DNA from: Abditibacterium sp.
GTDB taxonomy: Bacteria; Armatimonadota; Abditibacteriia; Abditibacteriales; Abditibacteriaceae
Direction of reading: 5' to 3'
Length of the DNA stretch: 64,000 nucleotides
NCBI GenBank assembly: GCA_965199495.1
Contig: CBDASK010000003.1
Coordinates: 384,001 to 448,000, forward strand
Shown piece by piece: positions 19,438 through 59,725 of the stretch (its first letter is position 1; every line of letters begins with the position of its first letter). Made by a program: the position numbers and the translations under genes. The notes below the pieces were generated by a model that was given only the letters and a program-made list of their open reading frames with translations, had not been told where the DNA came from and did no database searches.

Positions 19438-19511
19438 CTACGCTCTGCATTTTACGCGATTCCGATGAGTTAAACTGCGCGCCACACAGTTAAAAGTTGC
19501 GCTTATTTCTC

Positions 19512-21348: not shown

Positions 21349-21357
21349 ACTCTGGGC

Positions 21358-31788: not shown

Positions 31789-31822
31789 CTAATTCCGTTG
31801 TTTGCACAAGCAAATACGAATT

Positions 31823-31894
31823 TGGCCCGTAGCTCAGTGGTAGAGCGGTCGGCTGTTAACCGATTTGTCGCTGGTTCGAGTCCGGCCGGGCCAG
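31823..31894 (+). tRNA. tRNA-Asn (GTT), CCA not encoded
   Basis: Acceptor TGGCCCG/CGGGCCA, D-arm GCTC..GAGC, anticodon arm GTCGG-CTGTTAA-CCGAT, T-arm GCTGG-TTCGAGT-CCGGC. Confidence 0.96.
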
Positions 31895-34316: not shown

Positions 34317-34382
34317 CCTTACTCCTTGGGGGTAAAATTCCCGGTGCTATTTTACACTGATGCACGGTATCTCGAAAACCTC

Positions 34383-35876: not shown

Positions 35877-36751
35877 AACCTGCTGCCAAAAGCCGATCAC
35901 TTGAGGAAAAATCCGAGCCGCGCAGCCGATTTCAGCCGCAGAAAAGCGTTGGGATGCGTCTGGAAGAGCGCGATGAACAAATTTTGAGCAACCTATTTTT
36001 GCATCGTTTGATGGCGCGCGGGCAAATTGAACGGGTTTATTTTTCCTCGACCGTGCGCTGCAACGCGCGCTTGCGTCTGCTCTTCGATCACAAGTTCGTC
36101 TTACGCCACTTTCCGCCTGCCGCGCCGTTTGGAGCGCAAGCAATTTACAGCGTTGGCAAAGCGGCATTGCCGATTGTTTCTCGCCGCCTCGAAATGGATT
36201 TGCCCGAAGTCACCCGCTTTTATCGGCGCACCCAAACTCCGACGTTCATCGAACACACTCTGTCGGTAGTGGATATTTGGATCAAGATTCGAGAAGCGGT
36301 CGCAGACACAGAAAACTTGGCTCTCGATTTATGGTTGGCCGAAATGCAATGCCGCCATGAATGGGACATCCGAGCCGGTAGCGGCAAATGGCATAAGGAA
36401 AGTTTCAAACCAGACGCTTTCTTCCGTTTGGCGCACGGAGATACGTTTCACAATTTCTTTGTCGAAAGCGATCTGGGGCACACATCGGCAAAACAGTTCA
36501 CCGGCAAACTGCTCACGCATCAGCGTTACTTTGAGAGTGGTCTATTCCAGCAACGCTACGGAGAGGATGGCTTTCACACTCTGGTCGTGACGACGGGCGA
36601 ACGGCGGCTCAAAAATCTAAAAGAGTTGGCTGCCACTCAGAACAGCCAACTCTTTTGGTTCACCACTTTCGCTCGGCTCGAAAACGCGACCATTCTGAAT
36701 TCAATTTGGGAAAAGCCAAATCTAAACTCGGATGCTCTCTTAAGAATTTGA
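35873..36751 (+). CDS. Replication-relaxation family relaxase (Replic_Relax)
   Basis: RDEQIL..L..HR, FIEHTL, FKPDAFF, FFVESDLGH, LVVTT..RR; coupled to the T4CP gene. Confidence 0.85.
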   Translation: MKPAAKSRSLEEKSEPRSRFQPQKSVGMRLEERDEQILSNLFLHRLMARGQIERVYFSSTVRCNARLRLLFDHKFVLRHFPPAAPFGAQAIYSVGKAALPIVSRRLEMDLPEVTRFYRRTQTPTFIEHTLSVVDIWIKIREAVADTENLALDLWLAEMQCRHEWDIRAGSGKWHKESFKPDAFFRLAHGDTFHNFFVESDLGHTSAKQFTGKLLTHQRYFESGLFQQRYGEDGFHTLVVTTGERRLKNLKELAATQNSQLFWFTTFARLENATILNSIWEKPNLNSDALLRI

Positions 36752-37543: not shown

Positions 37544-37621
37544 ATTAATTTGTTTAGTGCTTTGCGTTCACGCTACGCTTTCTGATAAATTGTGTCAACG
37601 AAGCTGGCGCGCGGAATTCTT

Positions 37622-38263
37622 ATGCTCACCATCCCCTTGCGAATTCATCATTGGCTCCCAAAAGTGCGCGACACTCTGGGGCCAGGAACGCGCGCCATCG
37701 TTTGGGTTCAGGGCTGCACGTTGGCCTGCAAAGGTTGCATGGTGCCCGAAACATGGTCTGCGGAAAACTCGACTGCCATCGAGCCGCAAGACTTGGCGCG
37801 TCAAATCTTGGAAATGCCCAACATTGAGGGTGTGACCGTAAGCGGCGGGGAACCGACTCAGCAAGCCATTGCGGTCGCCGAACTTCTTTCTATTCTCAAG
37901 TCCAAAGGCTTAAATACCTGGCTTTATAGCGGCTACACCATCGAAGAATTAGTCGAGCGCAACGATGCGGAAACCGACCAACTTTTGAGCTGCGTGGATG
38001 TTCTGGTAGATGGCCGCTTCCAACAAGAACACGCTGGAATTTATCGCTGGCGTGGTTCGGCCAATCAACGAATTATCCACTTGACGGACGTAATTCCGCA
38101 AGCCCTGACGGAAGGCGAAGAGTCGGGCGGCGTCGAGATTACCGTTGATGCCCAAGGCGAACTCATTGTCGTGGGCGTGCCTCCGCCCCATTTTTTAGAA
38201 CAGTTTCGGGCGCGTCTAAAAGAGCGCGGGGTGACTCTGAAAAGCGATGCGGTTTGGAAATAA
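37622..38263 (+). CDS. Radical SAM protein, NrdG/glycyl-radical-activase-like
   Basis: GPGTRAIVWVQGCTLACKGC (CxxxCxxC), VTVSGGEP, YSGYT, DVLVDGRF, WRGSANQR. Confidence 0.9.
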   Translation: MLTIPLRIHHWLPKVRDTLGPGTRAIVWVQGCTLACKGCMVPETWSAENSTAIEPQDLARQILEMPNIEGVTVSGGEPTQQAIAVAELLSILKSKGLNTWLYSGYTIEELVERNDAETDQLLSCVDVLVDGRFQQEHAGIYRWRGSANQRIIHLTDVIPQALTEGEESGGVEITVDAQGELIVVGVPPPHFLEQFRARLKERGVTLKSDAVWK

Positions 38264-38341
38264 AATTTCTCAAGAAGTGGGTTGCAGAAGCTGGTTGAAT
38301 GAATTACAGTTTGTCCGTTGCTTTAAGTTTTCGGAGTTATT

Positions 38342-40987
38342 ATGCCCGTCTCCCAGGTCCACCGCTTCCTGTATGGCATCACGCCAATGACCGTTGAAAA
38401 ACGGCTGTGGATTCTTGGCGACACTCAAACCCACGACCTCTTTTTCCACAACCTCTTTCACGGTTGCGTCAGTCTTCGCCGCACTCTGGAGTTGTGGGCG
38501 CTGGAACACGGAACCGAATTGACCGCGTTTTTGGATGCTTCTGGTGAGATAGATTTCGATGGCAACGCCGATCCAGAAGCGGCCAAGCAGCTCTTTGATC
38601 AGCTCCTTCCGAATCGCACACCTCCTGAAGGATTTACACGACGCGCGCGACGCCAACCCCCCACCACAGAGGAAGCGTCGTCCGAGTCAACCGAAGCACG
38701 GGCGCAACAGGCGGCCAACCAAACCGACGATGCTCTGGGTGGCCAAGGCGCAGGACTTCGCAACACGTTTCAACATCTCGCCCACGCATTGGGCAACCGT
38801 GAGCATCCATTTCTGCTGATCGTAGAAGATTTTCACGAATTCATCGTCAACCGACTCGAACTCAATCCAGCGCGAGTCGAAATCGCTCAAGAACTCAAAT
38901 TTACCGTCCGCAAGAAATGGCAAGAGGCCGTCACACCATCGCCCAATTTGGTGGTTTTTCTCACCGATACGCCGCACGGTTTCAGATTTTTGTCCAATGA
39001 AGCTCTACCCTATCCAACGGTCGAGCAAAGGGAGATCAAAGAACCGACGATGCCAGAAGTCGAAGCCTCGATAGAGCGGCTGGCACTGCGACATCAGTTT
39101 GGGTTGAACGGGCAAAAAGCTATCGCCAAAACTTTATTTCGGCACAAACATTTGGAAGTTTCTCTGGCTTCCATTCGACGCGTTGTCAACGAAGGAAACA
39201 TGGAGGTTACTGTGGAAAACGTCTTGAGATTGCCGCCTATTAACGAACAAGCCGTCAGCGAAATCAAAGCCGAACTTGATCGTTTGGTCGGGTTGGATGA
39301 TTTAAAAGACAAAGTGCGACGCTTGGAAACCAAGGCGCGCCAGTTCCGGCAACGGCTGGAAGATGGCGAGTCCGATCTGCCCGAAGAAACTCTACACCTG
39401 GTATTCACCGGCAAACCGGGCACGGGCAAGACGACCGTCGCCGACATCGTGGCCCGGCTGTTTCACGCTTTGGGTTTGCTACGACTGGAAACCGTTCGTC
39501 CCGTTACCGCTTCGACGCTGATGAGTTCTAACGTGGGCGGAACACGGGAAAATATGCAGCGCGAGCTGACCGAATCGCTAGGCGGTGTGCTCTTCTTGGA
39601 CGAAGCTCACCAATTTGGCGACGCTCAAAACATCGCGGCTAAAGAAGCCGTGCAGGCTATCGTGCCGATGGCGTGGAATCACCGGCACGAGTTCGTGATC
39701 ATTCTGGCCGGATACGAAAACGAAATGCACGAGTTCTACAAGATGGATGACGGTCTGGATCGCCGCTTTCCAACCTTTAATCGTGTGCATTTCCCCGACT
39801 ACACGCCGAGCGAATTATGGATAATCTTGGAGCGTAAACTCGCCAAAAGTGGTTATTCTATCGCACCCGAAGTGCAGCCACGCCTTCGTTCTATTTTGAG
39901 TCAAAGGTCACAGCGCCAGGGTTTTGGTAACGCAGGTGGCGTGGACAACTTGGTCGCTGAACTACTGGAAACTCACGCGGTTTCCTCCGATCCAAGCTCG
40001 CGTGTTTTAACCGATGAAGCGTTGCCGCTTCTGGTGCGCCGTAACGCGAGCGTCTTCGATGCTGCGCAAGCCAAGTTGGACGACATGGTGGGACTAACTC
40101 CAGTGCGTGAGAAAATCCGTAGTCTCATTGATCGCATTGAATATCAACTGCAAGAAGTCGAGGAAGGCCGAGAATCCAACCTCAAACTTCATCCCGGCAA
40201 TATGCTCTTCGTTGGGCCGCCCGGCACCGGAAAGTCAACAATTGGGGCATTAATCGCCGATCTGCTTTTCGGCTTGGGAGCTATCGAGCGACGCATCTGT
40301 CATGTTGTCTCGCGCGGCGATTTGGTCGGTCAGTTCCAGGGACACTCCGCAGCGCAGGTGCGTTTGGCAGTGGAGAAAGCGCGCGACGGCGTGCTGTTTA
40401 TAGACGAGGCTTACGGACTTTCTCTCGATCCAAGGGATACATTTGGCAATGAGGCCGTGACCGAACTCGTCCGCCAGATCACAGACGGCCAAAATAGCGG
40501 CACGACTTTCATTTTGGCGGGCTACGAAGACGCGGTGACGGAGTTCCTCAACACTAATGCGGGGTTGGGGCGTCGTTTCGGCGAAACGATTCGCTTCCCC
40601 AACTTCTCGCCCGCCGATTGCGCTGAATTGGTGCGCCGACGGTTGGAAGAAGAGAATTACAGTTGGGAGGACGGCGTTCTGCAAGCCGTCGAGCGCATGG
40701 CTGATGTCACTGCCCGCGTCACGGGAGACAATTTCGGCAATGCGGGCTGGGTCGGAACCATTGTCACTCAGGCGCTTGATCGGATGATGTCACGCGTTAT
40801 TCAAAGTTCGATGCCGCGTAGTGACGCCAATCGTCGTCGGCTTCTAATCCAAGATTTGTTGAGCGATGGTTACGAGGAAGAGATACTAACCGCCGAAGCT
40901 CCAATTGACACAGAAGAAAACGGGGCTGAATCTGAGGAAGACTGTTCTCCAGAGGAGGTGGAAACCGATGACACCTCTGGGGCTTGA
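38342..40987 (+). CDS. SpoVK/CbbX/EccA-like ATPase with two AAA+ domains and a degenerate N-terminal domain
   Basis: GKPGTGKT/VLFLDEAH/ILAGY/GLDRRF/FGNA and GPPGTGKS/VLFIDEAY/GLGRRF/FGNA; acidic tail. Confidence 0.9.
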   Translation: MPVSQVHRFLYGITPMTVEKRLWILGDTQTHDLFFHNLFHGCVSLRRTLELWALEHGTELTAFLDASGEIDFDGNADPEAAKQLFDQLLPNRTPPEGFTRRARRQPPTTEEASSESTEARAQQAANQTDDALGGQGAGLRNTFQHLAHALGNREHPFLLIVEDFHEFIVNRLELNPARVEIAQELKFTVRKKWQEAVTPSPNLVVFLTDTPHGFRFLSNEALPYPTVEQREIKEPTMPEVEASIERLALRHQFGLNGQKAIAKTLFRHKHLEVSLASIRRVVNEGNMEVTVENVLRLPPINEQAVSEIKAELDRLVGLDDLKDKVRRLETKARQFRQRLEDGESDLPEETLHLVFTGKPGTGKTTVADIVARLFHALGLLRLETVRPVTASTLMSSNVGGTRENMQRELTESLGGVLFLDEAHQFGDAQNIAAKEAVQAIVPMAWNHRHEFVIILAGYENEMHEFYKMDDGLDRRFPTFNRVHFPDYTPSELWIILERKLAKSGYSIAPEVQPRLRSILSQRSQRQGFGNAGGVDNLVAELLETHAVSSDPSSRVLTDEALPLLVRRNASVFDAAQAKLDDMVGLTPVREKIRSLIDRIEYQLQEVEEGRESNLKLHPGNMLFVGPPGTGKSTIGALIADLLFGLGAIERRICHVVSRGDLVGQFQGHSAAQVRLAVEKARDGVLFIDEAYGLSLDPRDTFGNEAVTELVRQITDGQNSGTTFILAGYEDAVTEFLNTNAGLGRRFGETIRFPNFSPADCAELVRRRLEEENYSWEDGVLQAVERMADVTARVTGDNFGNAGWVGTIVTQALDRMMSRVIQSSMPRSDANRRRLLIQDLLSDGYEEEILTAEAPIDTEENGAESEEDCSPEEVETDDTSGA

Positions 40988-42362
40988 ATATCAAAACTCG
41001 CGCTGGCGAGCGAGCGGAATCGGCAACGAAGATTTCCCAGAAATACTTGCCGAAGGCGAGAGCGTGGAGTCCCTGCGCACGCTTTTGCCCGACCAGAATT
41101 GGGACGCCATTACTCTGGCGCTACCATACGGACTTTTGCGGCAAGAACCTCAACAAGTTGTAGAATTACGCCAGGAGTTAGAAAGCACCTTTCCTAACGC
41201 TGAAATCCGCGTAATTCCGCGTGCCGTCGCCGCTTCTGTTGCCGCGCTCTGGCCGAGGCGCACACCGGATCAAACCAAATTGCCCCTATTCGAGGGGCAA
41301 CATATCCTGGTTTGTTCTTTTGGCAACGAAAGCAGCGATTTCTTTATCATTCAGCGTGGGTCGGAAGAGTTGCCTTTGGTAGTAGTCAAGCAGCACACCA
41401 TTGCTTTTTCGAGCGAAGCTGTTGATGCCGCCTTAGTTGATGCTCTGCGGAATGCAAATCAACCAGTTGACAAAATTGCGCCTGAAATCATCGCTGGGTT
41501 ACGGCGCACTATCAGCCGAAATCTGAGTCGCGCCGTCGCAGGCCGCAAGGTAATTCCTGCGAGGGCGAAGTGGGCCGACGGACACGGTGTTGAAGTTCAA
41601 ACTGCATTGTCTGCCGAGCTTTACTTGGAAACTCTTGAAGTATTGCTTTCTGAAGCGCGCGAGAACCTGATTTCATTTTTGCAAGAACAGCAGTTAGATT
41701 TGCAATCTATCGCGCTATGCGGCGACGGGGCAGATATTCACGGAGTTCAGCAAAACATTGTAACTGCGGCTTTAACCCAAGTTTACGGCGCCGGAAGTTC
41801 CCTGCTCCAGCACCAAATTTCCGTCTTCTCGCCCCATGAGTTGGTAGCAACTGGCGCTGCTCTTTTGGCAGAAGGTAAAATATCATTTCAACAGAAATTA
41901 CCGTATAATGTTGGCGTCAGAATGCAAGTTGAGCCAAATAGTGCGTTGGCGGAATTGTTAAAACTACCAAAGGATTCGGCGGATTTTTGGCTCTATCCTT
42001 TGCTGTCACAGGGAACGGCATTGCCAGCACATTTTTGCAGTGAAGATTTAGAGATGTTCAATGTGTTGGAGGAAGGAGAAACTCTCGATTGGGAGTTGTA
42101 TTTAGCCGATGAGAGGACTCAGCATCAAAAATCTCAATCTTTGTGCTTCGACACACGAGCATCTACTGTTGTAAATTGGGAAATACTGGCGGACGCTCAA
42201 GGAACATTACATTCAAGATTTAGCGATGAAAACTCGCGGCAACTTGGCCATCAAGAAATTGAGTGGTTCGCCTCCAATTTGCCAAGTGCCGAAACGGGCA
42301 CTTTACCAACTATTTCCCCTGCTCAACTGAAGTATCAGCTTGATGCACAACAGAATGTTTGA
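40968..42362 (+). CDS. Degenerate Hsp70/actin-fold protein
   Basis: RBS aggagg; colinear Hsp70-like motifs LGLEY, IPRAVAAS, ILVCSFG, VDAALVD, IALCGDGA, PHELVATGAALLA, LLSQGTALP. Confidence 0.65.
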   Translation: MTPLGLEYQNSRWRASGIGNEDFPEILAEGESVESLRTLLPDQNWDAITLALPYGLLRQEPQQVVELRQELESTFPNAEIRVIPRAVAASVAALWPRRTPDQTKLPLFEGQHILVCSFGNESSDFFIIQRGSEELPLVVVKQHTIAFSSEAVDAALVDALRNANQPVDKIAPEIIAGLRRTISRNLSRAVAGRKVIPARAKWADGHGVEVQTALSAELYLETLEVLLSEARENLISFLQEQQLDLQSIALCGDGADIHGVQQNIVTAALTQVYGAGSSLLQHQISVFSPHELVATGAALLAEGKISFQQKLPYNVGVRMQVEPNSALAELLKLPKDSADFWLYPLLSQGTALPAHFCSEDLEMFNVLEEGETLDWELYLADERTQHQKSQSLCFDTRASTVVNWEILADAQGTLHSRFSDENSRQLGHQEIEWFASNLPSAETGTLPTISPAQLKYQLDAQQNV

Positions 42363-42386
42363 TCGGGCTTCAAATTTGGAATCGCT

Positions 42387-43451
42387 ATGCAAACCATCTC
42401 TCCTCAAAGTTCTGCCCCCTTGACCAATTTGCTCGGCGCCTTGCGGCGTCGGCGCAACTCTATCGCTTGGTCGGAATGGTTGCCGATTATCACCTTAGAT
42501 GCCGCAACGCCCGGCACATGGTTTCATTCGTTTAACGCGTTACCTGTCGATGAGCAGTGTGACGTGCTGGACTTACTGCTACGCCCAGATGCGGGGCCAC
42601 TATCAAACGTGCTTCTGATTGGTCTGGCCGCTCAAGCCGATCAGATCGAGGATGAGCAGGTGCGGCAAACCATTCTGCATGAAGTCGCTTCGGCGTGGGA
42701 AGCCAGCCTCGACGCCGTTAAGCATCAACTAAAATCGCTGAAGTCCAATGTTAGTAACTTTCAGAAAAGAGAGAGCGAGGCGTTTGATCTCGCGGCGAAC
42801 ATCCTGGAATCGGAGGGCGAATTAGCCGAACTGAGAGCCAACGAGTTCGAGATGGAAGAAGCATTCAGTCGGCTTCACGCTCTGGAAAGTAATTGTCAAG
42901 ATTTAGAGCGCCGCAAGAGAACTCTCGCACTTTATGATTTCAAGAAATCTGAAGAACGAGTTCAAACGCTGCAAAGCGAGTTGGAACAGGGCGAAGTTGA
43001 ACGTGCCGAGCTTGAAAGCGCAATCCAATCCTTAGACACTGACCTGAAGCGGTTGCGCGCCGATGTGGATAGCGCCAAAGTGCGGCAAACCGTTTTGCAA
43101 CCGGAAGTCGCCGGATTGGAAGCGGAACAGAACGAGTTGCGGAGTTCTGTTGCCGACGCACAAGCCTTAATTACGCAATTGCGCGATAGCAATGCAACGG
43201 CTCGCGCGCGCAAGAAAGAGTTAGAAGCAGAACAGCAAACACTCCAAACCCAGGCTGATAACATCGCGGCGGAAACAAGCGAGTGGACGACCAAATGCAA
43301 TCGTGAGCGCGAACGGCTCGAACAGTTACAGCGCGATGCCGAGAGCGCCCAGCGCACCGACATCAGTGACAAAATTAGCGAAGTCTTTCAACTTTTGCCC
43401 GCCGACCGAGCGGACGAAGGTTTTCATGCGACAGCAGGTAGCCGCAGCTAA
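42387..43451 (+). CDS. Coiled-coil protein
   Basis: Long heptad E/Q/L-rich region after a small N-terminal domain. Confidence 0.75.
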   Translation: MQTISPQSSAPLTNLLGALRRRRNSIAWSEWLPIITLDAATPGTWFHSFNALPVDEQCDVLDLLLRPDAGPLSNVLLIGLAAQADQIEDEQVRQTILHEVASAWEASLDAVKHQLKSLKSNVSNFQKRESEAFDLAANILESEGELAELRANEFEMEEAFSRLHALESNCQDLERRKRTLALYDFKKSEERVQTLQSELEQGEVERAELESAIQSLDTDLKRLRADVDSAKVRQTVLQPEVAGLEAEQNELRSSVADAQALITQLRDSNATARARKKELEAEQQTLQTQADNIAAETSEWTTKCNRERERLEQLQRDAESAQRTDISDKISEVFQLLPADRADEGFHATAGSRS

Positions 43452-43511
43452 ATTGCTGCGCGTTGTCTGCATCAACCTACTTTTTGCCAGTCATTTCAAG
43501 GAGAAAATACT

Positions 43512-45020
43512 ATGAGCGGCCCCAAAAGAGCGGATGTCGAAGCCCAATTGAAAGCAGCACAAAACGGCAAGCGCAAATGCGCCACGCTAATCGCCGATTC
43601 CGAGGTGCGCGCCCTGCTGCACCAGTTAAGAACAGCCGACAAGCTGGAAAACGAAGCGGCTCGCGTGTCCCACGAAGCGTCGCAGGCTCTCGACGGCCTG
43701 ACGCCCGAACTGCGTAATGCGGCGGGCGAAATTTTGTCCGATGTGACTTTTTTGGTGAACGAAGCGGCCAACCAAGCCCGTAATGCCAAAGTTCAAGGCG
43801 AGGAGGTTCGCGGTCTGCTCGACAGCGCACAAAATCAAGCGCGTAGCGCCGAAGCCACGCACAACAGAGCGACCCAAGCCCTCGATAGCGCCCAAGCCGC
43901 GCTGAGTGCCAAAGGCGGTCATTACCTGAGCGCCGAAATGCAGCAAGCCAGAGGCGCGACTCAACTCTTCAATCAGGCCGAGCAGGAGTTGGGTGAAGCC
44001 GCGCGGATTCGGCAGCAAGCCGCAGGACGCGCCAGCGACGCAATTCGCCGCGCGGAAGAGGCTAAAGCGACGGCTCGAAGCGCGGTGCAACGGGCGCAAA
44101 CCTTGCGGGCCGAAGCGCAAAAGCGCGTGAAAGCTGAGGAAGAAGCGCGCCGCATCGCCGAAGAGAAACAGCGACAAGCAACTCTGGCACTGAATAGTGC
44201 TCGAAGCGCGCTGGATTCGTTGCGTGATTCGTCGCACCAAAAGTTCCGCCCTGGCGCCTTAGCCGAGATGGAAAATTTGGTCAACACTGCCCAAAGCAAA
44301 CTGAACAGTGAGCAGTGGGACGAGTGCGTTCGCCAAGCCGAAGGGATCGAAAAACGTGGGCAACGGTTGATTCAAGAGATCGCCGAAGCGCAACGTGAAT
44401 ACGAGCGCAAACGGGCCGAATCGGAATCCCACATCCAAACTCTTTTGTCCGCGATTGACGGCGCCGACGGCGTGCGCATTAAGCAGTGGGCCGACGCGCC
44501 AAACGCTTACGCCGAAGCAGAAAAGGCGGCTCAATCCGCGCGCGAGGCGTTGAAGAGTGAAGCGTGGAGCGAAGCCAACTTCCTTTCGCAAAACGCACAG
44601 TCAAAATTGACACAGGCCATCGAAAGCGCGGCGCGCAACCAAAGTCAAGACGAAGTTCGCACCGAAATTGGCGAGGCTGTAATGGATGTTTTGGAAGACT
44701 TGGGCTTCGAGGTCTCTTCTAAAAACGGCTCTCGCAGCGAACCACTCCGCATTAAAGGCCAGACGCCTGATGCAAAGGGACGCGGTGATTTCGACGTTTC
44801 CATTCCCCTGTCAGGCGAAGTGGATTTCCACGTCGAAACGCCCGATGGCAGCACAAGCTGCGTCGCCGCCGTGCGCGAGTTACAAGACCGTTTGAAAGCG
44901 CGCGGCGTGAACTGGGAAACGACTGATTGGGGCCATGCTCAAGGCGCTGAGAATGCTGGGGGCAAAGTCAAAAGAACAGTCACTCAGACAGAACAAACCA
45001 AAATCAAGCAAACCCGTTAA
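43512..45020 (+). CDS. Long Ala/Gln coiled-coil protein with C-terminal alpha/beta domain
   Basis: RBS aaggag; MSGPK start; C-terminal VLEDLGFEV...SCVAAVRELQDRLKARGV. Confidence 0.75.
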   Translation: MSGPKRADVEAQLKAAQNGKRKCATLIADSEVRALLHQLRTADKLENEAARVSHEASQALDGLTPELRNAAGEILSDVTFLVNEAANQARNAKVQGEEVRGLLDSAQNQARSAEATHNRATQALDSAQAALSAKGGHYLSAEMQQARGATQLFNQAEQELGEAARIRQQAAGRASDAIRRAEEAKATARSAVQRAQTLRAEAQKRVKAEEEARRIAEEKQRQATLALNSARSALDSLRDSSHQKFRPGALAEMENLVNTAQSKLNSEQWDECVRQAEGIEKRGQRLIQEIAEAQREYERKRAESESHIQTLLSAIDGADGVRIKQWADAPNAYAEAEKAAQSAREALKSEAWSEANFLSQNAQSKLTQAIESAARNQSQDEVRTEIGEAVMDVLEDLGFEVSSKNGSRSEPLRIKGQTPDAKGRGDFDVSIPLSGEVDFHVETPDGSTSCVAAVRELQDRLKARGVNWETTDWGHAQGAENAGGKVKRTVTQTEQTKIKQTR

Positions 45021-45047
45021 AGCTCAACGGATCAACTTTCCACGATT

Positions 45048-46307
45048 ATGCCCTCGCTCACCCTTGCGCTTTCGCATCCGCAATCCGTCGCCCGCTTTGA
45101 AGCGGCGGCGGAAGAGTTGCTGTGCGCGCAAGGGTTTTGGGACGAGACAATCGAAGCCAAACTCCGGCAAGAAGCGCAGGGTTTGCACGCGCTCGATGTC
45201 GAGCCGGTGACGAGAAAGGTGCGCGGTTTGGATTCGGTTCAGGAAGCGTTTGCAGAAGAGGCGCGCAAAAGGCCGCACGAGAAATGGTTTGAGTTAGTTT
45301 CAACCTCACCCTTTAAGTTGGCGATCATCGTTGATAATTCGGATAGCTCTTGGCCTTATGCCGAATCCATCGCCGAATACGCGCGCGAGTTGGAAGCAGC
45401 CGCGCAAGCGATGGGCGCCGTTCAGTTTTGGGCGTGGGATCAACCGACGGCAAGTTGCGCTTCGGCGATAAACGCCAGCCGAGGCAACGCCAGTTTGTTC
45501 GCGCCGGTGTGGAACAAGTTGAAGCCCGAATTGGAGACGGGCACGGTTACACACGCGATAGTGTTGGGCGCGGGACAACTGTTTGACATCGAGGATTACG
45601 CGGAAGAAGAGGCTATAAAAGACGTTAAGTTCGTTCCTTTGGCCCAAACGCTAACCGATGACATTATCCCTGAATATAGGCTTGATCCGGCCCAACTGCT
45701 CGCACAGATGACAGCAGCCAACAGCACTTGCTCCATCGGTAGCGAGGGCGCGATTCCAGTCTGGTGGGATGATCCGGCGTGGGTTTGGAATGGGAAGAGA
45801 TTGGAGTTCAAACAGGAGAATTCTAACGCGCGCTTTGGTTTGCGCTCGGCGTGGCTGTGCGCGGATGGTCAAACGCCTAATGTCAAGTCGGATGTGGATG
45901 CCGCTACTCTGCAAGTTCATTCGGCTGCCGTTCCATTCTCGAATCAACATCGCTGGCAAAACACGCATTACCAGACCGATTCGCTACCCGATTCCGTGAC
46001 CGATTTTCGCCTTTCGAGCGGCCATGAAGCGGACGCCCAAGACATCTCGCCTCTGGAGTTGGCGCCAGAACAAAAAGGTTGGCTGTGGCTCTCATTCAGT
46101 GAGAATCCGGCGTCAAAAGGGCGTTATGACGTGCAGTTTTGCGTTCATCCGACGGGTGCTGTCGTGCTTCAGGAAAGCGTTGAGGTGGCGTTGTCGCAAA
46201 GCGACGGCATTCACGTTTACCGATTCCGCAATGATCGCTGGGAAAGCCGTCTACTTTCGCAATCCCATCTCAAAATTAAGGAGAATATTTATGCGTTTGC
46301 TTTGTGA
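45048..46307 (+). CDS. vWA-like domain protein
   Basis: LAIIVDNSDS (MIDAS DxSxS-like), SLFAPV, IVLGAGQLFD. Confidence 0.55.
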   Translation: MPSLTLALSHPQSVARFEAAAEELLCAQGFWDETIEAKLRQEAQGLHALDVEPVTRKVRGLDSVQEAFAEEARKRPHEKWFELVSTSPFKLAIIVDNSDSSWPYAESIAEYARELEAAAQAMGAVQFWAWDQPTASCASAINASRGNASLFAPVWNKLKPELETGTVTHAIVLGAGQLFDIEDYAEEEAIKDVKFVPLAQTLTDDIIPEYRLDPAQLLAQMTAANSTCSIGSEGAIPVWWDDPAWVWNGKRLEFKQENSNARFGLRSAWLCADGQTPNVKSDVDAATLQVHSAAVPFSNQHRWQNTHYQTDSLPDSVTDFRLSSGHEADAQDISPLELAPEQKGWLWLSFSENPASKGRYDVQFCVHPTGAVVLQESVEVALSQSDGIHVYRFRNDRWESRLLSQSHLKIKENIYAFAL

Positions 46308-46947
46308 CGACGGTTTCCCGATGCTGGAGTTGCCCAGCTACGGCTTTGTCGTGGGAGCTTTGCCGTTTACCAAAGCGCAATATGAAAAGCTGTGGGCGCT
46401 CGTTGGTTGCCCGCGCAATTTGCCGCAGGAAGAAACACCGTTTAGTGACAATTGCTACGATGGATGTCTCGCGCTCAATCCTCGTCCCGCGAAGCAGTCG
46501 AAGATTATAAAGCCGCTCAACTTTTGGCTAACCGGCCTCTCGCCACAGCACACGGAGAGATTGCTTTCTCATCTGCCCAATGCCCGTTTGCCGGAGTCAC
46601 AAATTTGGTTGAACGTCGAAAAGTATCTGAGCCAAAAACCGTTTACCGACGAGGACAAATTGCAGTGGGAACAGTTGGAGTTGAGCGAAGCCGCGCGCCA
46701 TGCCGTTCGAGTTTTGTGGGGACAGAAGAAGCCACATAACTGGGCACAAGCCACTGCACTTCAAGATGGCATTTTGGAATGGGTCAAGTGGCAACAGGAC
46801 TCATGGGACAGAAATGCCTCTGACGTGGGAGCTTTAGGCAGCCCGCAGGGGACTTCTTTTGTGCCGCAGCTTGACGGGCCGCGTCGCCATAGCGCAACGG
46901 ACCAACCGGATGGGTGGAACGGATTTAGAGTTTGGAAAACTTTGTAA
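46291..46947 (+). CDS. FGE-sulfatase (SUMF1)-like fold protein, divergent
   Basis: RBS aaggag; LPFTKAQYE, ARLPESQIW, GILEWV, terminal GFRV in FGE-like order. Confidence 0.6.
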   Translation: MRLLCDDGFPMLELPSYGFVVGALPFTKAQYEKLWALVGCPRNLPQEETPFSDNCYDGCLALNPRPAKQSKIIKPLNFWLTGLSPQHTERLLSHLPNARLPESQIWLNVEKYLSQKPFTDEDKLQWEQLELSEAARHAVRVLWGQKKPHNWAQATALQDGILEWVKWQQDSWDRNASDVGALGSPQGTSFVPQLDGPRRHSATDQPDGWNGFRVWKTL

Positions 46948-46951
46948 CGCC

Positions 46952-48646
46952 ATGAGCCATGCCAACACTATCAGTGCGCGCCAACTGATCTACACCAACG
47001 TCGAAGCCGACCAATCGCCCAGTAAGCGAGCCGGCTTTCAGATTCTGCTCGCCAGCAAAGGCATCAGTGAGGCTGACAAAGCGGAGGTTTCGCAAAGACT
47101 GGTCTATAGTTCTCCATCTAAAGAGAACGCGCCCACAAAAAACGTTTTCTATCCGACGCAGAGCGGCGATTTGCTGTTGGCGCAAATTGTTTTGCTGCCT
47201 GAACCTGACGGCGCCAACAGGTTCGGTCGCTATCTCGCGCACGCGCTGATATTTTCGCCCGCAGAATTTGAAGAGTTGAACAACGATCCATTTCCGATTT
47301 TCGAGAATTTCAGTTTCCTCGTGACAGTCCAAGCCGCTTTGGAGCGTGGCGACCGAGTAACAGGCGAAATCGCCGCAGAAGGCAGAAGCTCCGCAGAATG
47401 GGACAGAACGGGTTTGGATTCCACCCTTTCGAGAACGCGAATTTTGGACGAAGTAGATTCGCAGAACCGCCGACAACTGCTGTTGCTCGCCACGCAACTC
47501 GCCAGTAACGAGAACGAACGCAACTCGTTGGCGCTGTTTGGCGAGCCGACGACGGCTTACCGATATCTTTCGGCTTTGATAGCCATCACGCCCAAATCTC
47601 TGCGGCCTCGGTGTAGCTTCGACACGTTCGCTGGCGGCGGCAACTTGAACTCGGCGCATTACTGGGCGGTCGGACTACCCGCCGAAGCGCAACGAACGTC
47701 GCGTTTGTTCGCTTTCAACCTCGCACAAGAAGAATTTGACCAGGAGATTTTTCGCTCGCCTGAAACGACTTACCAAAAATGGTTGGACGAACAGAGCCAC
47801 CGCAAGGCATCGGAGATCGCCGAAGAGTCGGGTGTCGTGGCGCAGTTTATGGAGTGGTTGGAAAACCCAGAGACACGTTTAGTTCCACCACAAAATCGAG
47901 CAGAAAGTTTGGTGTTAACAACATTGACAAATCTCAACATGAACGCAATTGAGAAACGATTGCAGGATCGGTTGACGCAGCAAACCGGCGAGTATCTGGC
48001 GCCGGTGCTGGCGCCTCAAATCATTTCACCTCTGCTGCTTCAGCACTCCATTGGCAGCGCAATTACGATTTGTCAAAGAGGTTTTACCCTCGATCAGTTG
48101 GAGGATTCTACTCGGACGCTGTGCGTTAATTCAAAAATTGGTTTAACCCCTGATGTTTTAAGCGACATCGAAAGGTTTGCCAATGCCAACAACCTCAATC
48201 AACTCAAATTGGCAGTTTTGCGTTTAGCTCAACAGTGGGAACAGCTCACTAATGCACTGCACAAAGCCTCGGAGAGCGACTACCAATTTTTTGCGAACTG
48301 GGCTTTGGAGTCTCTACCGATACGTTTGCAGTGGAATATTGAACACAAAGGTAGTAGCCTCTCGTTTGGGCCGGAACTTAAGCTCGTAGGCGCGCAGAAA
48401 TCGGACCTTGAAGCAGATTTTTGTCCCTTGCTCTACGCACTTTTGGGTAAAACTTGGCCGGAGCAAACAAGTTGGTTCAATCCGGTCAGAAGACACCGCG
48501 AAGACGTTCCCGCGCACCCAAACATCAGGCGCTGGTTTTGGTTGATGGATGAACTCGAAAAAAGACACGACCAACGCACCCAACACAATCGTTCTTCAGC
48601 GCCAATTTCCACTCGCAAAATGAACCCAAATCCGTTTAAACGCTGA
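46952..48646 (+). CDS. GAP1-N2 (GTPase-associated protein 1)-like protein
   Basis: QLIYT....SP..RAGFQ ... DGANRFGRYLAHAL; R..CSFDTF; directly upstream of a GTPase. Confidence 0.7.
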   Translation: MSHANTISARQLIYTNVEADQSPSKRAGFQILLASKGISEADKAEVSQRLVYSSPSKENAPTKNVFYPTQSGDLLLAQIVLLPEPDGANRFGRYLAHALIFSPAEFEELNNDPFPIFENFSFLVTVQAALERGDRVTGEIAAEGRSSAEWDRTGLDSTLSRTRILDEVDSQNRRQLLLLATQLASNENERNSLALFGEPTTAYRYLSALIAITPKSLRPRCSFDTFAGGGNLNSAHYWAVGLPAEAQRTSRLFAFNLAQEEFDQEIFRSPETTYQKWLDEQSHRKASEIAEESGVVAQFMEWLENPETRLVPPQNRAESLVLTTLTNLNMNAIEKRLQDRLTQQTGEYLAPVLAPQIISPLLLQHSIGSAITICQRGFTLDQLEDSTRTLCVNSKIGLTPDVLSDIERFANANNLNQLKLAVLRLAQQWEQLTNALHKASESDYQFFANWALESLPIRLQWNIEHKGSSLSFGPELKLVGAQKSDLEADFCPLLYALLGKTWPEQTSWFNPVRRHREDVPAHPNIRRWFWLMDELEKRHDQRTQHNRSSAPISTRKMNPNPFKR

Positions 48647-48706
48647 ATCAACAACCTCTTTTTTCTACCCGTTAAGCTCTCGAAAATTCGCTATTCCTAA
48701 TCCGCC

Positions 48707-49927
48707 ATGAACAGGTCATCTACTGCCGCCAAACAAAGAAAGCTTTGCCCTATGTGCTTGAAGTTCGTGGACGAGTTCTCCGTCGAGGAGGGCGCGGACG
48801 GTTCTTCGGTGCAAAGGTGCCCAGAGTGTGACAATGACGTGCCCTGGCTTTATGTGAGTGATTACGAGAAGTTTCCTCCAGCAGTTTTCAGCGTCATCGG
48901 GTTTCGGAGTCACGGCAAATCCGTGTTCTTAGGCAGCCTTTTTCACGAACTAACAGCCGCCGCCACTGCAAACTCACCCAAGGAATGGCCGCACTTTTCT
49001 TATTCATCGCTCGACCAGGCGGGCATGGATCAAGTTCTTGAAATTAAAAGGAATTTAGAAGACCGCAAGCTACCCGCGCCAACTTTAGAATCGTTTTTTC
49101 AACCCGCAATTTTGAAGATGAGGAACTTGCCCCAATTTGGCTCGCGGCACCTGTTGGCCTACGACACATCGGGAGAACTACTGCAACAAACCGCCAGAAT
49201 CAAAAGCTACCAAAAGGGTTATATCAGCCGAGTTTCTACGATTGTGTTGATCGTGAGTTGGAAGCAATTGGATGTCGCCGAACAATCAAAATATCATCTG
49301 GACGAGTTAATCACCATCTACCGAGAAGCGTTGATTTCCCTGGGCGGCGATCCACAGCAGCAAAGTTTGCTGGTTGTTTTGAGCAAAGGCGACCGCCTGT
49401 TGGGAGAATCAGGTTTGCCCGAACGCGTGACCGAGTTCTTGAAGCCCATCGCAGCAAACGAAAACGGTCAAGGCGTTCACGAAAACGGAGATGCCGCGCA
49501 TTTCGCGCGACTCGACACGCTGTCGCAGGAAATCGAGTTATGGCTGGAAGGCCAAAGGCACTTCAGCACTTTCGTGCGTGAAGCGCGCGCAGAGTTTCAC
49601 CGCGTCGAGTATTGCGTGGCAACAGCGACCGGACATGAGGCCAAAGATAACGTTTTACCCTACGATATCGCGCCGCGCGGAGTGCTTTCGTCTTTGCTGT
49701 GGACATTACGCCTCCAGACGCCCGACGCCCAGGAAGAGCAAGCCCACAAAGCCACTGTCGCCCAGGCCAAGAAACTTTTAGAGCATAGAGATTACGTCAA
49801 ATTCTTTCGTCAAGCCAATCGAGACAAGGATCGGCTACACGCGTTGGATTTTCTCACGGTTGGACGCGGGCGCACCCTGCCCGCAAAGAAATTAGTGTTG
49901 GAATTTAGAAACCGCAGTGAGAGCTGA
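48707..49927 (+). CDS. Zn-ribbon + TRAFAC GTPase (double-GTPase family-like)
   Basis: CPMC..CPEC; G1 GFRSHGKS; G3 YDTSGE; G4 LSKGD; ATG..PRGV. Confidence 0.8.
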   Translation: MNRSSTAAKQRKLCPMCLKFVDEFSVEEGADGSSVQRCPECDNDVPWLYVSDYEKFPPAVFSVIGFRSHGKSVFLGSLFHELTAAATANSPKEWPHFSYSSLDQAGMDQVLEIKRNLEDRKLPAPTLESFFQPAILKMRNLPQFGSRHLLAYDTSGELLQQTARIKSYQKGYISRVSTIVLIVSWKQLDVAEQSKYHLDELITIYREALISLGGDPQQQSLLVVLSKGDRLLGESGLPERVTEFLKPIAANENGQGVHENGDAAHFARLDTLSQEIELWLEGQRHFSTFVREARAEFHRVEYCVATATGHEAKDNVLPYDIAPRGVLSSLLWTLRLQTPDAQEEQAHKATVAQAKKLLEHRDYVKFFRQANRDKDRLHALDFLTVGRGRTLPAKKLVLEFRNRSES

Positions 49928-49964
49928 TGCAGACAAGTTCGACTAAACGAAGGAGATTACAAAC

Positions 49965-50819
49965 ATGGATACAAATTCACCAGATCACGACGTTTTCGGT
50001 GCAGCGAGCCAAGACCTTCAAAACGAAGCTAACACCTCAACTGGAGCTTTTAAGCTCTTCGGCACCATCGCTGTGCTTGCCGTTCTCGGAGTCGTTTCTT
50101 GGATGGGATGGCAGAGTTACTCTTCCAAAAATGAGGTTGCCGTAGCGCCACAACCAACGATTCAAGTAGCAGCAGCGCCTGAAACACCTGTTGCCGCTCC
50201 TGCCTCTGAAACTGCCGATGACCATGATGAACACAAGGCAAATCCGGCTGTTTCGGCGGAAGAGGCCGAAGGCGCGCATCACAAGCATTTCGAGGCCCAG
50301 GGCGCTCTGGTAACTAATCACGAAATCGCGTTATTCATGGAGACACAAAAGGCAGGCGGCGTCTCACCCTCTGAACGCGCGCAAATCGTGACGCAAAGAC
50401 TGAATGAGACGGCGGAATCTACTGGGCTTGACCCAGAAAAAATTGTGGCTCGGATGGAAAACGATTTGGCAACGGTTTACTACGCCAAGCCAGGCAAAGC
50501 GGGCTATGTTTTGGCGACCGTTGATCCCAAGACAGCCGCACAATTCGGTTTCGGCAAAAACCCTGCGCTTCTGACATATTGGTGGCGCGATGTTTTGCGA
50601 GATCATGCGTGCATTATTGCGGGCAATCCACCAATTTATACCACACCTTATTCGAGTATTTTGCAGAGGGTTTACTCGCTCTGTCAGGCAGAGCAAAAAG
50701 GAGTTCCTACTCACGAAAGTTTTGAAACCGCCATCAGCAAACTTTCGCGCGAAGAACACGATGCGTTACAGGGGCTTTATGTTCAGGTGCCCACCAACTA
50801 TCGTCCCCAGACCGATTAA
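49965..50819 (+). CDS. Single-TM protein with His/acidic linker
   Basis: RBS aaggag; TM IAVLAVLGVVSWMGW; DDHDEHK..HHKH; last gene before a terminator. Confidence 0.65.
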   Translation: MDTNSPDHDVFGAASQDLQNEANTSTGAFKLFGTIAVLAVLGVVSWMGWQSYSSKNEVAVAPQPTIQVAAAPETPVAAPASETADDHDEHKANPAVSAEEAEGAHHKHFEAQGALVTNHEIALFMETQKAGGVSPSERAQIVTQRLNETAESTGLDPEKIVARMENDLATVYYAKPGKAGYVLATVDPKTAAQFGFGKNPALLTYWWRDVLRDHACIIAGNPPIYTTPYSSILQRVYSLCQAEQKGVPTHESFETAISKLSREEHDALQGLYVQVPTNYRPQTD

Positions 50820-50829
50820 AAAAAGCAAA

Positions 50830-50872
50830 AACAAAATCCCCGTATCTTAATTGGTGCGGGGATTTTTTGTTG
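50830..50872 (+). terminator. Intrinsic terminator ending the 10-gene operon
   Basis: aaaatccccgtatc-ttaatt-ggtgcggggatttttt. Confidence 0.7.
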
Positions 50873-50977: not shown

Positions 50978-52585
50978 GTGAAACTTGAAAACTCACCCTC
51001 TCCCCAGGTCAATGGCATGGCTTACGGCCCGTCCCATCGCCCCGCAACGAAATCTGAGCCACCAGCCCAGCCCAAAGCCGCTCCCGCCAACTGGCAGATC
51101 GTAATGATCCCCGTCGGTCAGATCGGCCCCAACCCGTATCAGCCACGCTTGCAGTTCGATGAGGAAGAGATGACCGAACTGATCGCCAGCGTGCGCGAAC
51201 GCGGCGTGCAACAACCGATCCTGGTTCGCACGACGCCGACTTCCAAAAGTGACGAAAGTGAGAAGCCGACACAGCAATACCAACTGGTCGCGGGCGAACG
51301 ACGTTTGCGGGCCTGCAAAGCCGCTAAACGTCGCCTTATCCCCGCCATCGTGCGCGACGACTTGAGCGATGTGCAAGCGGCTGAATTGGCACTTTTGGAG
51401 AACGTGCAACGCTCCAACCTTAACGTCATCGAAGAGGCCAGAGCTTTTCGGCGGCTGATGCTCGACTTTCGCATGAAGGAAGAGCGCATCGCCAAAAAGG
51501 TGGGCAAATCGGTGGCGACGGTGAAAGACACGCTGCGTTTGCTGGCACTACCAAGCGAAGTTCAGACGCTGATGATCGCGCGTAAGCTGACGGCTTCGCA
51601 CGGCCAACAGTTGCTTCGATTGGCACCTTTCGAGTCAGTGTGCCGCGAAGTGGCGCGCCGAGCAGCGACTGAAGGCATTCCGGCGACGGCGCTTTCGCAA
51701 GAGCCATTGCCAGGTGCCCGTCAACTCCGCGATAGCAAGCTGATTGTGGAACTGGACTTTCGCACCCGCTTCGACTGGAAGAGCGAATGCGGTTCTTGCC
51801 CGCATAAGGCTTACGTTGTGAGCGGCTACCATTCGTATTGCCTCAAGCCCGACGAATGGCAACGCAAGCAAAACGAAGCTATCGAACGAGCCAAACAGGA
51901 AGCGGCGCGTGTGCTGGACGAAGCCAAGCAGAACGACAACGGCGAAGTGGATACCGAGTCACTACCGCCTGGTTCGTATCGTGATTTGACTCACGCGCAA
52001 TTGCCCGCCGGATGCTGCGAAGTCTGCCCGTGTCGCGGCGAGACCACTGATCCGCGTGATCCAACGCAAAAGAAGCCTATTTGTCTGGCGCCAGAACGCT
52101 TTGCCGAACTGGTGCGCGCCGAACGTCAGGCTCACGAAGAAGCGCGCCAACGCAAATTCACCGAGTTCTGGCGCGAAGCACTGCGACGCTTAAACGACGC
52201 AGAGCAGGAACCCGTCGTCTCTTGGGCGACGCTTGCGCTTTGGCCCCTCGTCAAGGGCACGCATCTGCGCTACGGAGAACAGCAAAGCTGGAATGAACTG
52301 GGGCAGCAGGTCGCAACCGAACTCTCACTCGATTTGCCTTGGCAACTCTGGCAGGACGAGGAAACTTCGACCGACCAGCTTCTCACCGAGTTGAAGCGGG
52401 TCGAAACCAACGATCTGCTGCGATTCTTCGGCGCTCTTCTGCTCGCGCAGGAGGCGCTTCAAGCGATTCGCTACGGCGATGAAACGCCACTACTTTCTGC
52501 TGTTCTGGGCCACCAGACGGCGACTCAAGGAGAACTCTCCAATTCAGACGAAACGGAATCTTCCGATTCCGACGAAGAAGAGTAA
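50978..52585 (+). CDS. ParB/RepB/Spo0J family protein with duplicated Cys-rich motifs
   Basis: PNPYQPR, GVQQPILVR, LVAGERRLRA, LENVQRSNL, HTH; CGSCP..YC and CEVCPC..IC. Confidence 0.9.
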   Translation: MKLENSPSPQVNGMAYGPSHRPATKSEPPAQPKAAPANWQIVMIPVGQIGPNPYQPRLQFDEEEMTELIASVRERGVQQPILVRTTPTSKSDESEKPTQQYQLVAGERRLRACKAAKRRLIPAIVRDDLSDVQAAELALLENVQRSNLNVIEEARAFRRLMLDFRMKEERIAKKVGKSVATVKDTLRLLALPSEVQTLMIARKLTASHGQQLLRLAPFESVCREVARRAATEGIPATALSQEPLPGARQLRDSKLIVELDFRTRFDWKSECGSCPHKAYVVSGYHSYCLKPDEWQRKQNEAIERAKQEAARVLDEAKQNDNGEVDTESLPPGSYRDLTHAQLPAGCCEVCPCRGETTDPRDPTQKKPICLAPERFAELVRAERQAHEEARQRKFTEFWREALRRLNDAEQEPVVSWATLALWPLVKGTHLRYGEQQSWNELGQQVATELSLDLPWQLWQDEETSTDQLLTELKRVETNDLLRFFGALLLAQEALQAIRYGDETPLLSAVLGHQTATQGELSNSDETESSDSDEEE

Positions 52586-52637: not shown

Positions 52638-52761
52638 CGTTACTTTCGCTTTGTTGTCTCGACGCAACTGGATTCGTTCTTTCACTCATTTCAGGCCAAT
52701 ATAAGCGGGAAGAGTAAAGCGCCTTGGCGTTTTAAATCTCACTCTTCGCACTTTGAAAAGG

Positions 52762-59723: not shown

Positions 59724-59725
59724 AT

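Follow-up and report, generated by a model that had tools for sequence, protein, structure and literature searches.

We identified an operon of ten genes, designated O1 to O10, in a 64,000-nucleotide stretch of DNA from Abditibacterium sp., a member of the Armatimonadota (GenBank assembly GCA_965199495.1, contig CBDASK010000003.1, positions 384,001 to 448,000 of the forward strand), referred to below as the window. The operon encodes a radical SAM enzyme, a tandem AAA+ ATPase, a degenerate Hsp70, a coiled-coil protein, a helical protein with a C-terminal alpha/beta domain, a vWA protein, a stand-alone FGE-sulfatase (FGS) protein, a GAP1 protein, a GTPase and a membrane protein. Our tentative reading, which we place a little below an even chance, is that these form one composite 'conflict system' machine driven by nucleoside triphosphates and built of two modules that also occur apart. 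Module A (O1–O5) is, judging from sequence comparison, a rare version of a core that is common in the phylum and consists of an NrdG-derived radical SAM enzyme, an AAA+ ATPase and a protein here called Y. Module B (O6–O10) is, from its domain content, a member of the published GAP1-N2 class of GTPase systems, of the FGS type described for planctomycetes. The initial annotation had presented the ten genes as a unitary new system; this does not hold, since module B belongs to a known class and module A is separable, being present without GTPase or GAP1 in a related genome (G096). Its domain assignments (radical SAM, double AAA, pseudo-Hsp70, coiled coil, vWA, FGE, GAP1-N2 and GTPase) agree with Pfam and NCBIfam matches, Foldseek searches and aligned relatives.

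The ten open reading frames lie on the + strand between 37592/37622 and 50819, are separated by -20 to +78 nt, and have ribosome-binding-site-like sequences at their refined starts. A hairpin with a U-run follows O10 (Table 1), and 0 of 200 shuffled sequences were equally stable. A generic terminator scan called 22 sites, not above the 23.1 found in shuffles, and missed this hairpin because of its loop. Because of the small gaps and overlaps, the ribosome-binding-site-like sequences and the single strong terminator, we consider the genes to be one operon as far as sequence can tell, in line with the earlier description of ten co-oriented, closely spaced reading frames ending in one terminator. 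At the junction between the modules (O5/O6) there is a 27-nt gap in which the scan placed no terminator. Contigs of approximately 96% identity from a second study's sample span the whole operon region; a single one crosses the O5/O6 junction, and others cross O6/O7/O8 and O8/O9.

O1 is an NrdG-derived radical SAM protein with matches to Radical_SAM (1.3e-8) and NrdG (3e-34) in addition to Fer4_12. It aligns end to end with the NrdG model TIGR02491 at 118.2 bits, under the equivalog cutoff of 126.1, and matches the PHROG 'anaerobic RNR small subunit' (anaerobic ribonucleotide reductase) at 7.6e-32. A C-terminal extension of approximately 50 amino acids (aa) is conserved across the alignment of its family. 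O2, the sole AAA+ gene of the operon, matches EccA (4.8e-87), CbbX (5.9e-80) and AAA_lid_6 as well as SpoVK, with only 6.5e-5 to the FtsH model, and Walker A and B are intact in both AAA+ domains (GxxGxGK[ST], DEA[HY]).

The structural model of O3 from AlphaFold (AF2) has a predicted local distance difference test score (pLDDT) of 86.3 and a predicted template-modelling score (pTM) of 0.82, and Foldseek matches it to full-length DnaK (1.6e-22, TM 0.62). The three ATP-binding motifs are degraded: phosphate-1 reads GLEYQNSRW in place of GIDLGTSNT, phosphate-2 CSFGNESSDF in place of CDxGGGTFD, and the adenosine motif GDGADI in place of GGGSRI. An Hsp70 subdomain insert is also missing. Relatives of O3 number 40 in 1.84e9 representatives; 27 of the 30 aligned ones match Pfam HSP70, whereas O3 itself does not, and a sequence search of the PDB with O3 gave nothing significant. 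Because of the DnaK-like model, the three degraded motifs and the missing subdomain, the label of pseudo-Hsp70 given earlier is right, and from the model O3 is predicted to be an Hsp70 that has lost ATP binding but retains the substrate-binding domain.

A search of the class (31 genomes including G000) with O3 returned one relative, in G096, a genome of the same genus. There the slot between the pair of genes for a T4 coupling protein (T4CP) and a Replic_Relax relaxase and the gene for ParB encodes a radical SAM protein (61% identical), a tandem AAA+ protein (47%), an Hsp70-like protein (30%), a coiled-coil protein (32%) and an O5-like protein (36%), together with small membrane, TPR and ankyrin proteins. 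The Hsp70-like protein of G096 matches Pfam HSP70, unlike O3. No relative of O8 or O9 was found in G096; because this genome carries O1–O5 without them, we divide the window operon into modules A and B. Of 400 further genomes sampled from the phylum, G096 alone yielded full-length orthologues of O2 and O5, and tblastn searches of plasmids with O5 and O3 gave no match. The G096 element (L030/L031, G096:C25) also has an Eco57I/MmeI-like methylase upstream and a type I restriction system between ParB and DUF932.

Module B centres on O8 and O9. O8 matches the GAP1-N2 family at 1.1e-12 (48.6 bits against a cutoff of 24) and is present in one copy in the genome; of the GAP1-N2, GAP1-M and GAP1-C domains of the class, GAP1-N2 is the only one reported at E <= 0.01, and relatives align to approximately aa 500. 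O9 matches DO-GTPase2 at 6.4e-8 (33 bits against a cutoff of 27), with one zinc ribbon (CxxC...CxxC at aa 14-41) and the motifs GxxxxGKS (GFRSHGKS), DTSGE and SKGD. O6 has no Pfam match. Its AF2 model is confident only at aa 85-200 (pLDDT approximately 80), with the beta-rich C-terminus at low confidence; almost all Foldseek matches of this moderate model are vWA folds (best 2.4e-4), the metal-ion-dependent adhesion site (MIDAS) motif DxSxS (D96/S98/S100) is invariant in 8 sequences, and the protein atlas gave weak VWA leads (0.81). A PDB sequence search with O6 found nothing significant, its profile reaching only E ~1 to a host receptor vWA domain. O7, whose ATG at 46291 is preceded by AAGGAG, likewise has no Pfam match of its own, but 3 of 6 aligned relatives lie above the PF03781 cutoff (L016 8.7e-8, L017 4.1e-7, L019 7.5e-6); a PDB search with the O7 profile gave nothing significant. 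O10 has a single hydrophobic window (aa 25-50) and GAAGGAG before its ATG. No family was found for it in Pfam, PADLOC or PHROGs and nothing usable in the protein atlas; two weak NCBIfam YidC matches (E ~2e-3), far below cutoff, cover the membrane segment. No kinase, phosphatase or FHA gene was detected in the operon with Pfam.

Relatives of O8 are present in 12 of the 400 genomes. In the 12 corresponding loci, five of which are on contigs of less than 9 kb, blastp detected DO-GTPase in 7, O7-like FGS in 6, O6-like vWA in 4 and O1-like radical SAM in 3, and O2, O3, O4, O5 and O10 in none. A ClpB-D2-like AAA_2 gene lies directly upstream of the vWA gene in 4 of the 12 (Pfam). One of these loci, from the same genus (G084), has the order T4CP, Replic_Relax, AAA_2, vWA, FGS, GAP1, radical SAM, GTPase, Y, and is thus the same element backbone with a different, ClpB-like motor. 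Pfam GAP1-N2 missed its GAP1, and family-model searches therefore undercount. Another locus (G142) has the order radical SAM, GTPase, X, X, Y, AAA_2, vWA, FGS and, after intervening genes, GAP1. The metagenome contig L042 keeps the window order vWA-FGS-GAP1-GTPase with no radical SAM gene between GAP1 and GTPase, and the order of GAP1 before GTPase recurs in both L042 and L020. Searches for further loci gave no result in genome contigs with the O8 or Hsp70 alignments, in metagenome contigs with the O6 alignment, or in viral contigs with P0002 or the O5 alignment; the O6 relative P0043 as query returned two short contigs only.

Two further groups of proteins recur in these GAP1-N2 operons. 'Family X' proteins, absent from the window, have in common a zinc ribbon of four Cys residues and, at the C-terminus, a domain of approximately 250 aa with no family assignment (coordinates in Table 1). 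HEAT-repeat proteins are encoded between FGS and GAP1 in several operons (L018 5983-9565, L019 13240-14610, L023 7740-8666).

The two modules are probably coupled and not merely adjacent, a suggestion that comes from comparing the proteins at the junction. Over its first 60 aa, O6 matches the N-terminus of the protein encoded after O5 in G096 (29%, E 6e-5), O6 relatives as distant as 44% identity (P0043) retain this stretch, and the contig of approximately 96% identity bridges O5 and O6; we propose coupling because of these three observations. Alternatively, the operon could be two independent five-gene systems that share a promoter and terminator and were stacked in the cargo slot by recombination. 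Defence genes commonly stack in such slots, and this explanation would account for module A standing alone in G096, for the GTPase modules without module A in G084 and other O8-relative loci, and for the fact that O1 belongs to a clade distinct from that of the GTPase-linked radical SAM proteins. We nevertheless regard it as rather unlikely, given that the 27-nt junction has no terminator, that O6 joins a vWA domain to an N-terminus linked with module A, a chimera preserved at 44% identity, and that other GTPase-type operons carry their own radical SAM, AAA+ and Y genes, where the window operon has O1, O2 and O5 instead.

The core of radical SAM, AAA+ and Y genes extends well beyond the operon. 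The O1 family, including its C-terminal extension, is present in 61 of the 400 genomes. Among 20 loci fetched, in which AAA_2 and Y were scored with purpose-built hidden Markov models (HMMs), 17 contained ClpB-like AAA_2 and 14 contained Y; of these 14, 7 belong to the alignment used to build the model and 7 are independent. Another 2 loci have classical AAA neighbours. A reading frame between AAA_2 and radical SAM in L105 was considered as a Y protein but looks unrelated (13% identity, no Cys) and is not counted. The usual operons read radical SAM, Y, AAA_2, VWA, FHA, PP2C, kinase, or Y, AAA_2, radical SAM, FHA, PP2C, kinase. In one such locus (L092, G109:C40, 6873-18500) three Ser/Thr kinases flank radical SAM-Y-AAA_2-VWA-FHA-PP2C, one of them fused to Sel1 and two to FGE-sulfatase. 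In GTPase-type operons, the protein encoded upstream of AAA_2 is a homologue of Y (hhalign probability 99.6, E 8e-25), and the C-terminus of O5 remotely resembles the Y families (probability 88.7, E 2.5e-6; probability 87.6, E 3.5e-6). In 13 of 14 sequences the last helix begins with a Cys, which is Cys450 in O5. With hhalign, O2 and the ClpB-like proteins align over the AAA domain alone and have no common N-terminal domain. In a tree of the radical SAM proteins (24 rows, without the partial L016), O1 shares a clade of 97/95 support with G096 and a kinase-type locus.

These neighbourhoods bear on the function of O1. The initial annotation had called it an 'orphan' glycyl-radical-activase-like enzyme. 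The absence of a glycyl-radical enzyme partner stands, whereas the protein itself belongs to a common family of the phylum that travels with AAA+ ATPases. O1 might still be an ordinary NrdG, only a passenger in the operon, whose task is to activate an anaerobic ribonucleotide reductase from another locus, as its best match is the full-length NrdG model (118 bits) and its PHROG match has the same meaning. We find this highly improbable, in view of the score below the cutoff, the conserved C-terminal extension, the AAA+ and Y neighbours in 14 to 17 of the 20 loci, and the count of zero for NrdD and glycyl-radical domains (PF13597, PF01228) in the 95%-complete host genome, where positive controls were detected. 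Because of this count and the lack of a glycyl-radical motif in the operon proteins, O1 is predicted to have a new substrate, whose identity is a guess; a protein presented by the motor is the most economical guess because of the constant company of AAA+ and Y/O5.

A broader reading, which we consider doubtful although well above negligible, is that an NrdG-derived radical SAM enzyme, a Cys-loop Y protein and an AAA+ unfoldase form a radical-based protein-activation module present in approximately one in seven sampled genomes of the phylum. The AAA+ protein would present Y, on which the radical SAM enzyme would install a radical or Cys modification, and the module would plug into kinase/PP2C/FHA, DO-GTPase/GAP1 or Hsp70-like switches and vWA/FGS binders. 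The window operon would be its rarest and most elaborate combination, an immune device of a mobile element.

The GTPase-centric systems to which module B belongs were defined by their DO-GTPase/GAP1 pair (Kaur, Burroughs, Iyer & Aravind 2020, eLife, PMC7159879). The link to these conflict systems drawn in the initial annotation is borne out by the GAP1-N2 (PF20013) and DO-GTPase2 (PF19993) matches, which fall in the class set out in the main text of that paper. There, GAP1-N2 systems with FGS effectors are described for planctomycetes, and vWA and HSP70/GrpE accessories for other phyla. The window operon shares with this class a GAP1-N2 protein adjoining a Zn-ribbon DO-GTPase2 with Glu in Walker B, FGS and vWA proteins, a membrane component, an Hsp70-family accessory and a mobile neighbourhood. 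However, GAP1 is typically downstream of the GTPase in the class and upstream here; the GTPase usually has two zinc ribbons and O9 has one; the Hsp70 is ATP-dead, with no GrpE, DnaJ or FNIII-repeat protein detected in the operon; and the window operon adds the NrdG-like radical SAM enzyme and the tandem CbbX/SpoVK AAA+ protein.

Other known systems resemble parts of the operon. The simple FtsH ternary systems of PMC7159879 likewise have a two-AAA protein, a divergent vWA protein with an N-terminal helical region, a radical SAM protein and private alpha-helical proteins, and occur in planctomycetes. They differ in that the window operon has a GTPase-GAP1 pair and no MoxR gene, Walker A and B are intact in both O2 domains, while the first AAA domain of the FtsH systems is dead, and O2 is of the CbbX/SpoVK/EccA family (6e-92) and not FtsH. 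With NrdG and other glycyl-radical activases O1 shares the Fer4_12 and Radical_SAM fold, CxxxCxxC, GGE, its size and a full-length match, but it scores below the cutoff and has the C-terminal extension, AAA+/Y partners and no glycyl-radical partner in the genome. Operons with vWA, FHA, PP2C and Pkinase genes harbour the most frequent relatives of the O1 core and resemble the vWA/PP2C/Ser-Thr kinase triads of the TerY-P type and theme 3 of the GAP1-N2 systems (PMC7159879), from which the window operon is set apart by having no kinase, phosphatase or FHA gene. O2 shares AAA and AAA_lid_6 with the CbbX/SpoVK/EccA remodellers, which match both of its AAA+ domains strongly; its tandem arrangement behind a 300-aa N-terminal domain differs, and the operon is unrelated to Rubisco, sporulation or type VII secretion.

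The main text of PMC7159879 mentions radical SAM once, for the FtsH ternary systems, and 'cbbx' and 'spovk' 0 times. Our literature search found no paper on the radical SAM/AAA+/Y core and none joining vWA/PP2C/kinase triads to radical SAM and AAA+; the supplement of PMC7159879, which lists neighbourhoods, lay outside its scope and may already draw radical SAM or AAA+ genes in GAP1-N2 neighbourhoods. As far as these searches go, what is new is the NrdG-like radical SAM protein with its conserved AAA+ and Y partners, a dead Hsp70 alongside a tandem motor of CbbX type, and a three-way swap of modules in one slot of related elements.

That slot is part of a mobile island, which the initial annotation had described as also holding ubiquitin-like and Mrr defence genes. 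The island begins at a tRNA-Asn gene that abuts a serine recombinase gene, and carries a second serine recombinase, T4CP, Replic_Relax, ParB, an E2-ThiF-JAB gene and an Mrr nuclease gene. The T4CP/Replic_Relax pair lies just upstream of the operon and also precedes the variable slot in G096 and G084, and ParB, DUF932 and PD-(D/E)XK nuclease genes follow it, with the ParB of G096 being 51% identical. From this arrangement, the operon is taken to be the cargo of a mobilisable island at tRNA-Asn, in the variable slot that separates its relaxase and ParB genes. Among three genomes of the genus, this one slot holds module A (G096), a GTPase module with ClpB-like AAA+ (G084), or both modules (the window). 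The 21-nt 3' end of the tRNA gene is single-copy in the genome, so that no attachment repeat was found there. Two elements may be nested or in tandem, because the second recombinase lies within the island. Between the relaxase gene and the operon, 36740-37543 (- strand) encodes an acidic protein of 267 aa with three repeats of approximately 35 aa (RRKxEIDxMAATMSDxEVFG-like); no convincing family match was obtained, a weak one to Pfam WPP (E 1.3e-3) falling below the cutoff, and the protein does not resemble the product of the gene that occupies this position in G096. Outside the island, 19497-23220 (+ strand) holds ordinary-looking genes for a rhodanese, two DUF1559 proteins and a BatA/VWA_2 protein.

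We consider the setting to be of the conflict type because the island is mobile and carries E2-E1-JAB and Mrr genes, because the slot content differs among the three genomes, and because G096 has restriction-modification genes. No named defence system was matched, as had been stated earlier: PADLOC-DB 2.0 (PADLOC v2) gave only generic matches to operon proteins (IetA/TRIP13 for AAA, LmuB/JetC for coiled coil, pVip at 2.8e-4) and none for O3 or O5–O10. An anti-phage or anti-mobile-genetic-element role, also proposed earlier, is putative. The core might not be immune at all: it could be a cellular signalling or protein-remodelling pathway of the phylum, usually run by a Ser/Thr kinase, PP2C and FHA, or could serve transfer, establishment or partition of the element. 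Consistent with this, the radical SAM family is present in 61 of 400 genomes, its typical neighbours are kinase, PP2C and FHA signalling genes, housekeeping genes such as aroA, amidohydrolase and LacI genes flank the G142 copy, and in three genomes of the genus the cluster is flanked directly by relaxase/T4CP on one side and ParB on the other. Such a role seems unlikely to us, however, considering the patchy spread (GAP1 in 12 of 400 genomes, O2 and O5 in 1 of 400), the swapping of modules between closely related elements with E2-E1-JAB, Mrr and restriction genes as neighbours, and the reading of FGS and vWA as antigen binders or sensors in the main text of PMC7159879 and in passages of PMC10907252.

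Several observations weigh against one composite conflict machine. Each module occurs alone and may work separately, and the complete set of ten genes was found only in this genome and one near-identical population. The GTPase-linked radical SAM proteins form a clade separate from O1 (97/95), a pattern for which a recent merger of the modules accounts as well as integration does. The likeness of O5 to Y is remote (hhalign probability of approximately 88% with a 2-sequence profile), and the Y HMMs miss O5 at 1e-5. No fn3 domain was found at E <= 0.01 in the ten operon proteins, although an FNIII-repeat protein is said to typify GAP1-N2 systems, and the glycyl-radical motif R[VITLA][CSAT]G[YFW] has 0 matches in the scanned proteins of the operon and its relatives. 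In G142 the core relatives lie amid ordinary metabolic genes, unlike a defence island; the specific proteins of the operon match no PADLOC model; and the literature search returned no other paper on DO-GTPase/GAP1-N2 systems and no experiment on any.

If the ten proteins do act as one machine, a working can be proposed. The vWA protein O6 and the lectin-like FGS protein O7 would bind a target, and GAP1 (O8) with the Zn-ribbon DO-GTPase2 (O9) would form a GTP-dependent switch that gates this binding; these roles of binder or sensor and of switch are borrowed from comparative arguments in the main text of PMC7159879 and passages of PMC10907252. O10 would tie the output to the membrane. The AAA+ motor O2, with the pseudo-Hsp70 O3 as client adaptor, would remodel a scaffold of O4 and O5, and the N-terminal helical adaptor of O6 would couple modules A and B. 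O1 would put a radical-dependent modification on a protein of the system, for which the conserved Cys loop of the O5/Y domain, possibly presented by the AAA+ protein, is the best candidate target. Such a modification would make activation gated by S-adenosylmethionine and by redox state.

Table 1. Coordinates of the operon, the surrounding island and the recurrent family X (positions in the window unless a locus is named)
Feature	Position	Strand	Basis or remark
O1, NrdG-derived radical SAM, CxxxCxxC, GGE; start GTG 37592 or ATG 37622	37592..38263	+	Fer4_12 5.9e-36
O2, tandem AAA+ of CbbX/SpoVK/EccA family, N-terminal domain of ~300 aa without family	38342..40987	+	SpoVK 6e-92
O3, degenerate Hsp70-like, nucleotide-binding domain and beta-sandwich substrate-binding domain	40968..42362	+	AF2 and Foldseek
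O4, N-terminal domain of ~100 aa and long coiled coil	42387..43451	+	weak SMC/Rad50/crescentin/LmuB-type matches
O5, long helical N-terminal part and C-terminal alpha/beta domain, remotely Y-like, conserved Cys450	43512..45020	+	hhalign
O6, N-terminal helical adaptor (aa 1-85), vWA and beta-rich C-terminal region	45048..46307	+	MIDAS, Foldseek
O7, stand-alone FGE-sulfatase/FGS (C-type-lectin-like) protein	46291..46947	+	aligned relatives match PF03781
O8, GAP1 protein with GAP1-N2 domain; start may be 46910/46859	46952..48646	+	PF20013
O9, Zn-ribbon DO-GTPase2	48707..49927	+	PF19993
O10, single-pass membrane protein, Pro/Ala-rich linker, C-terminal domain without known family	49965..50819	+	hydrophobic window
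Predicted intrinsic terminator, operon end	50833..50868	+	14-bp stem, dG -26.4 kcal/mol, z -5.4, U-run
tRNA-Asn (GTT), island left attachment point	31822..31895	+	ARAGORN; abuts serine recombinase gene
Large serine recombinase, island integrase	31834..33546	-	Resolvase 1.7e-26, Recombinase, Zn_ribbon_recom
T4 coupling protein	34212..35876	+	TrwB_AAD_bind 2.2e-11; just upstream of operon with relaxase
Replic_Relax relaxase	35873..36751	+	Replic_Relax 3.5e-21
ParB	50978..52585	+	backbone downstream of slot
DUF932	52753..53913	+	backbone downstream of slot
PD-(D/E)XK nuclease	53910..54716	+	backbone downstream of slot
Second large serine recombinase inside island	55805..57421	+	
E2 (Prok-E2_A)-ThiF-JAB fusion, then metallo-beta-lactamase-fold gene	57453..60850	-	ubiquitin-like conjugation cassette
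Family X	L017 13838-16760; L018 14292-16813; L019 11282-12316; L016 9717-10967		

The DO-GTPase/GAP1 systems are a prediction of 2020, and this locus and its relatives form a compact natural experiment on them. In three elements of one genus a single slot is occupied by module A, by module B or by both, which shows the genes that should be transferred as a unit. The conserved association of an NrdG-like radical SAM protein with three different AAA+ families and a Cys-bearing private domain suggests radical chemistry directed at a protein and lying outside metabolism. If true, this would be a new chemistry for bacterial signalling or immunity, and would give a function to orphan NrdG-like genes.

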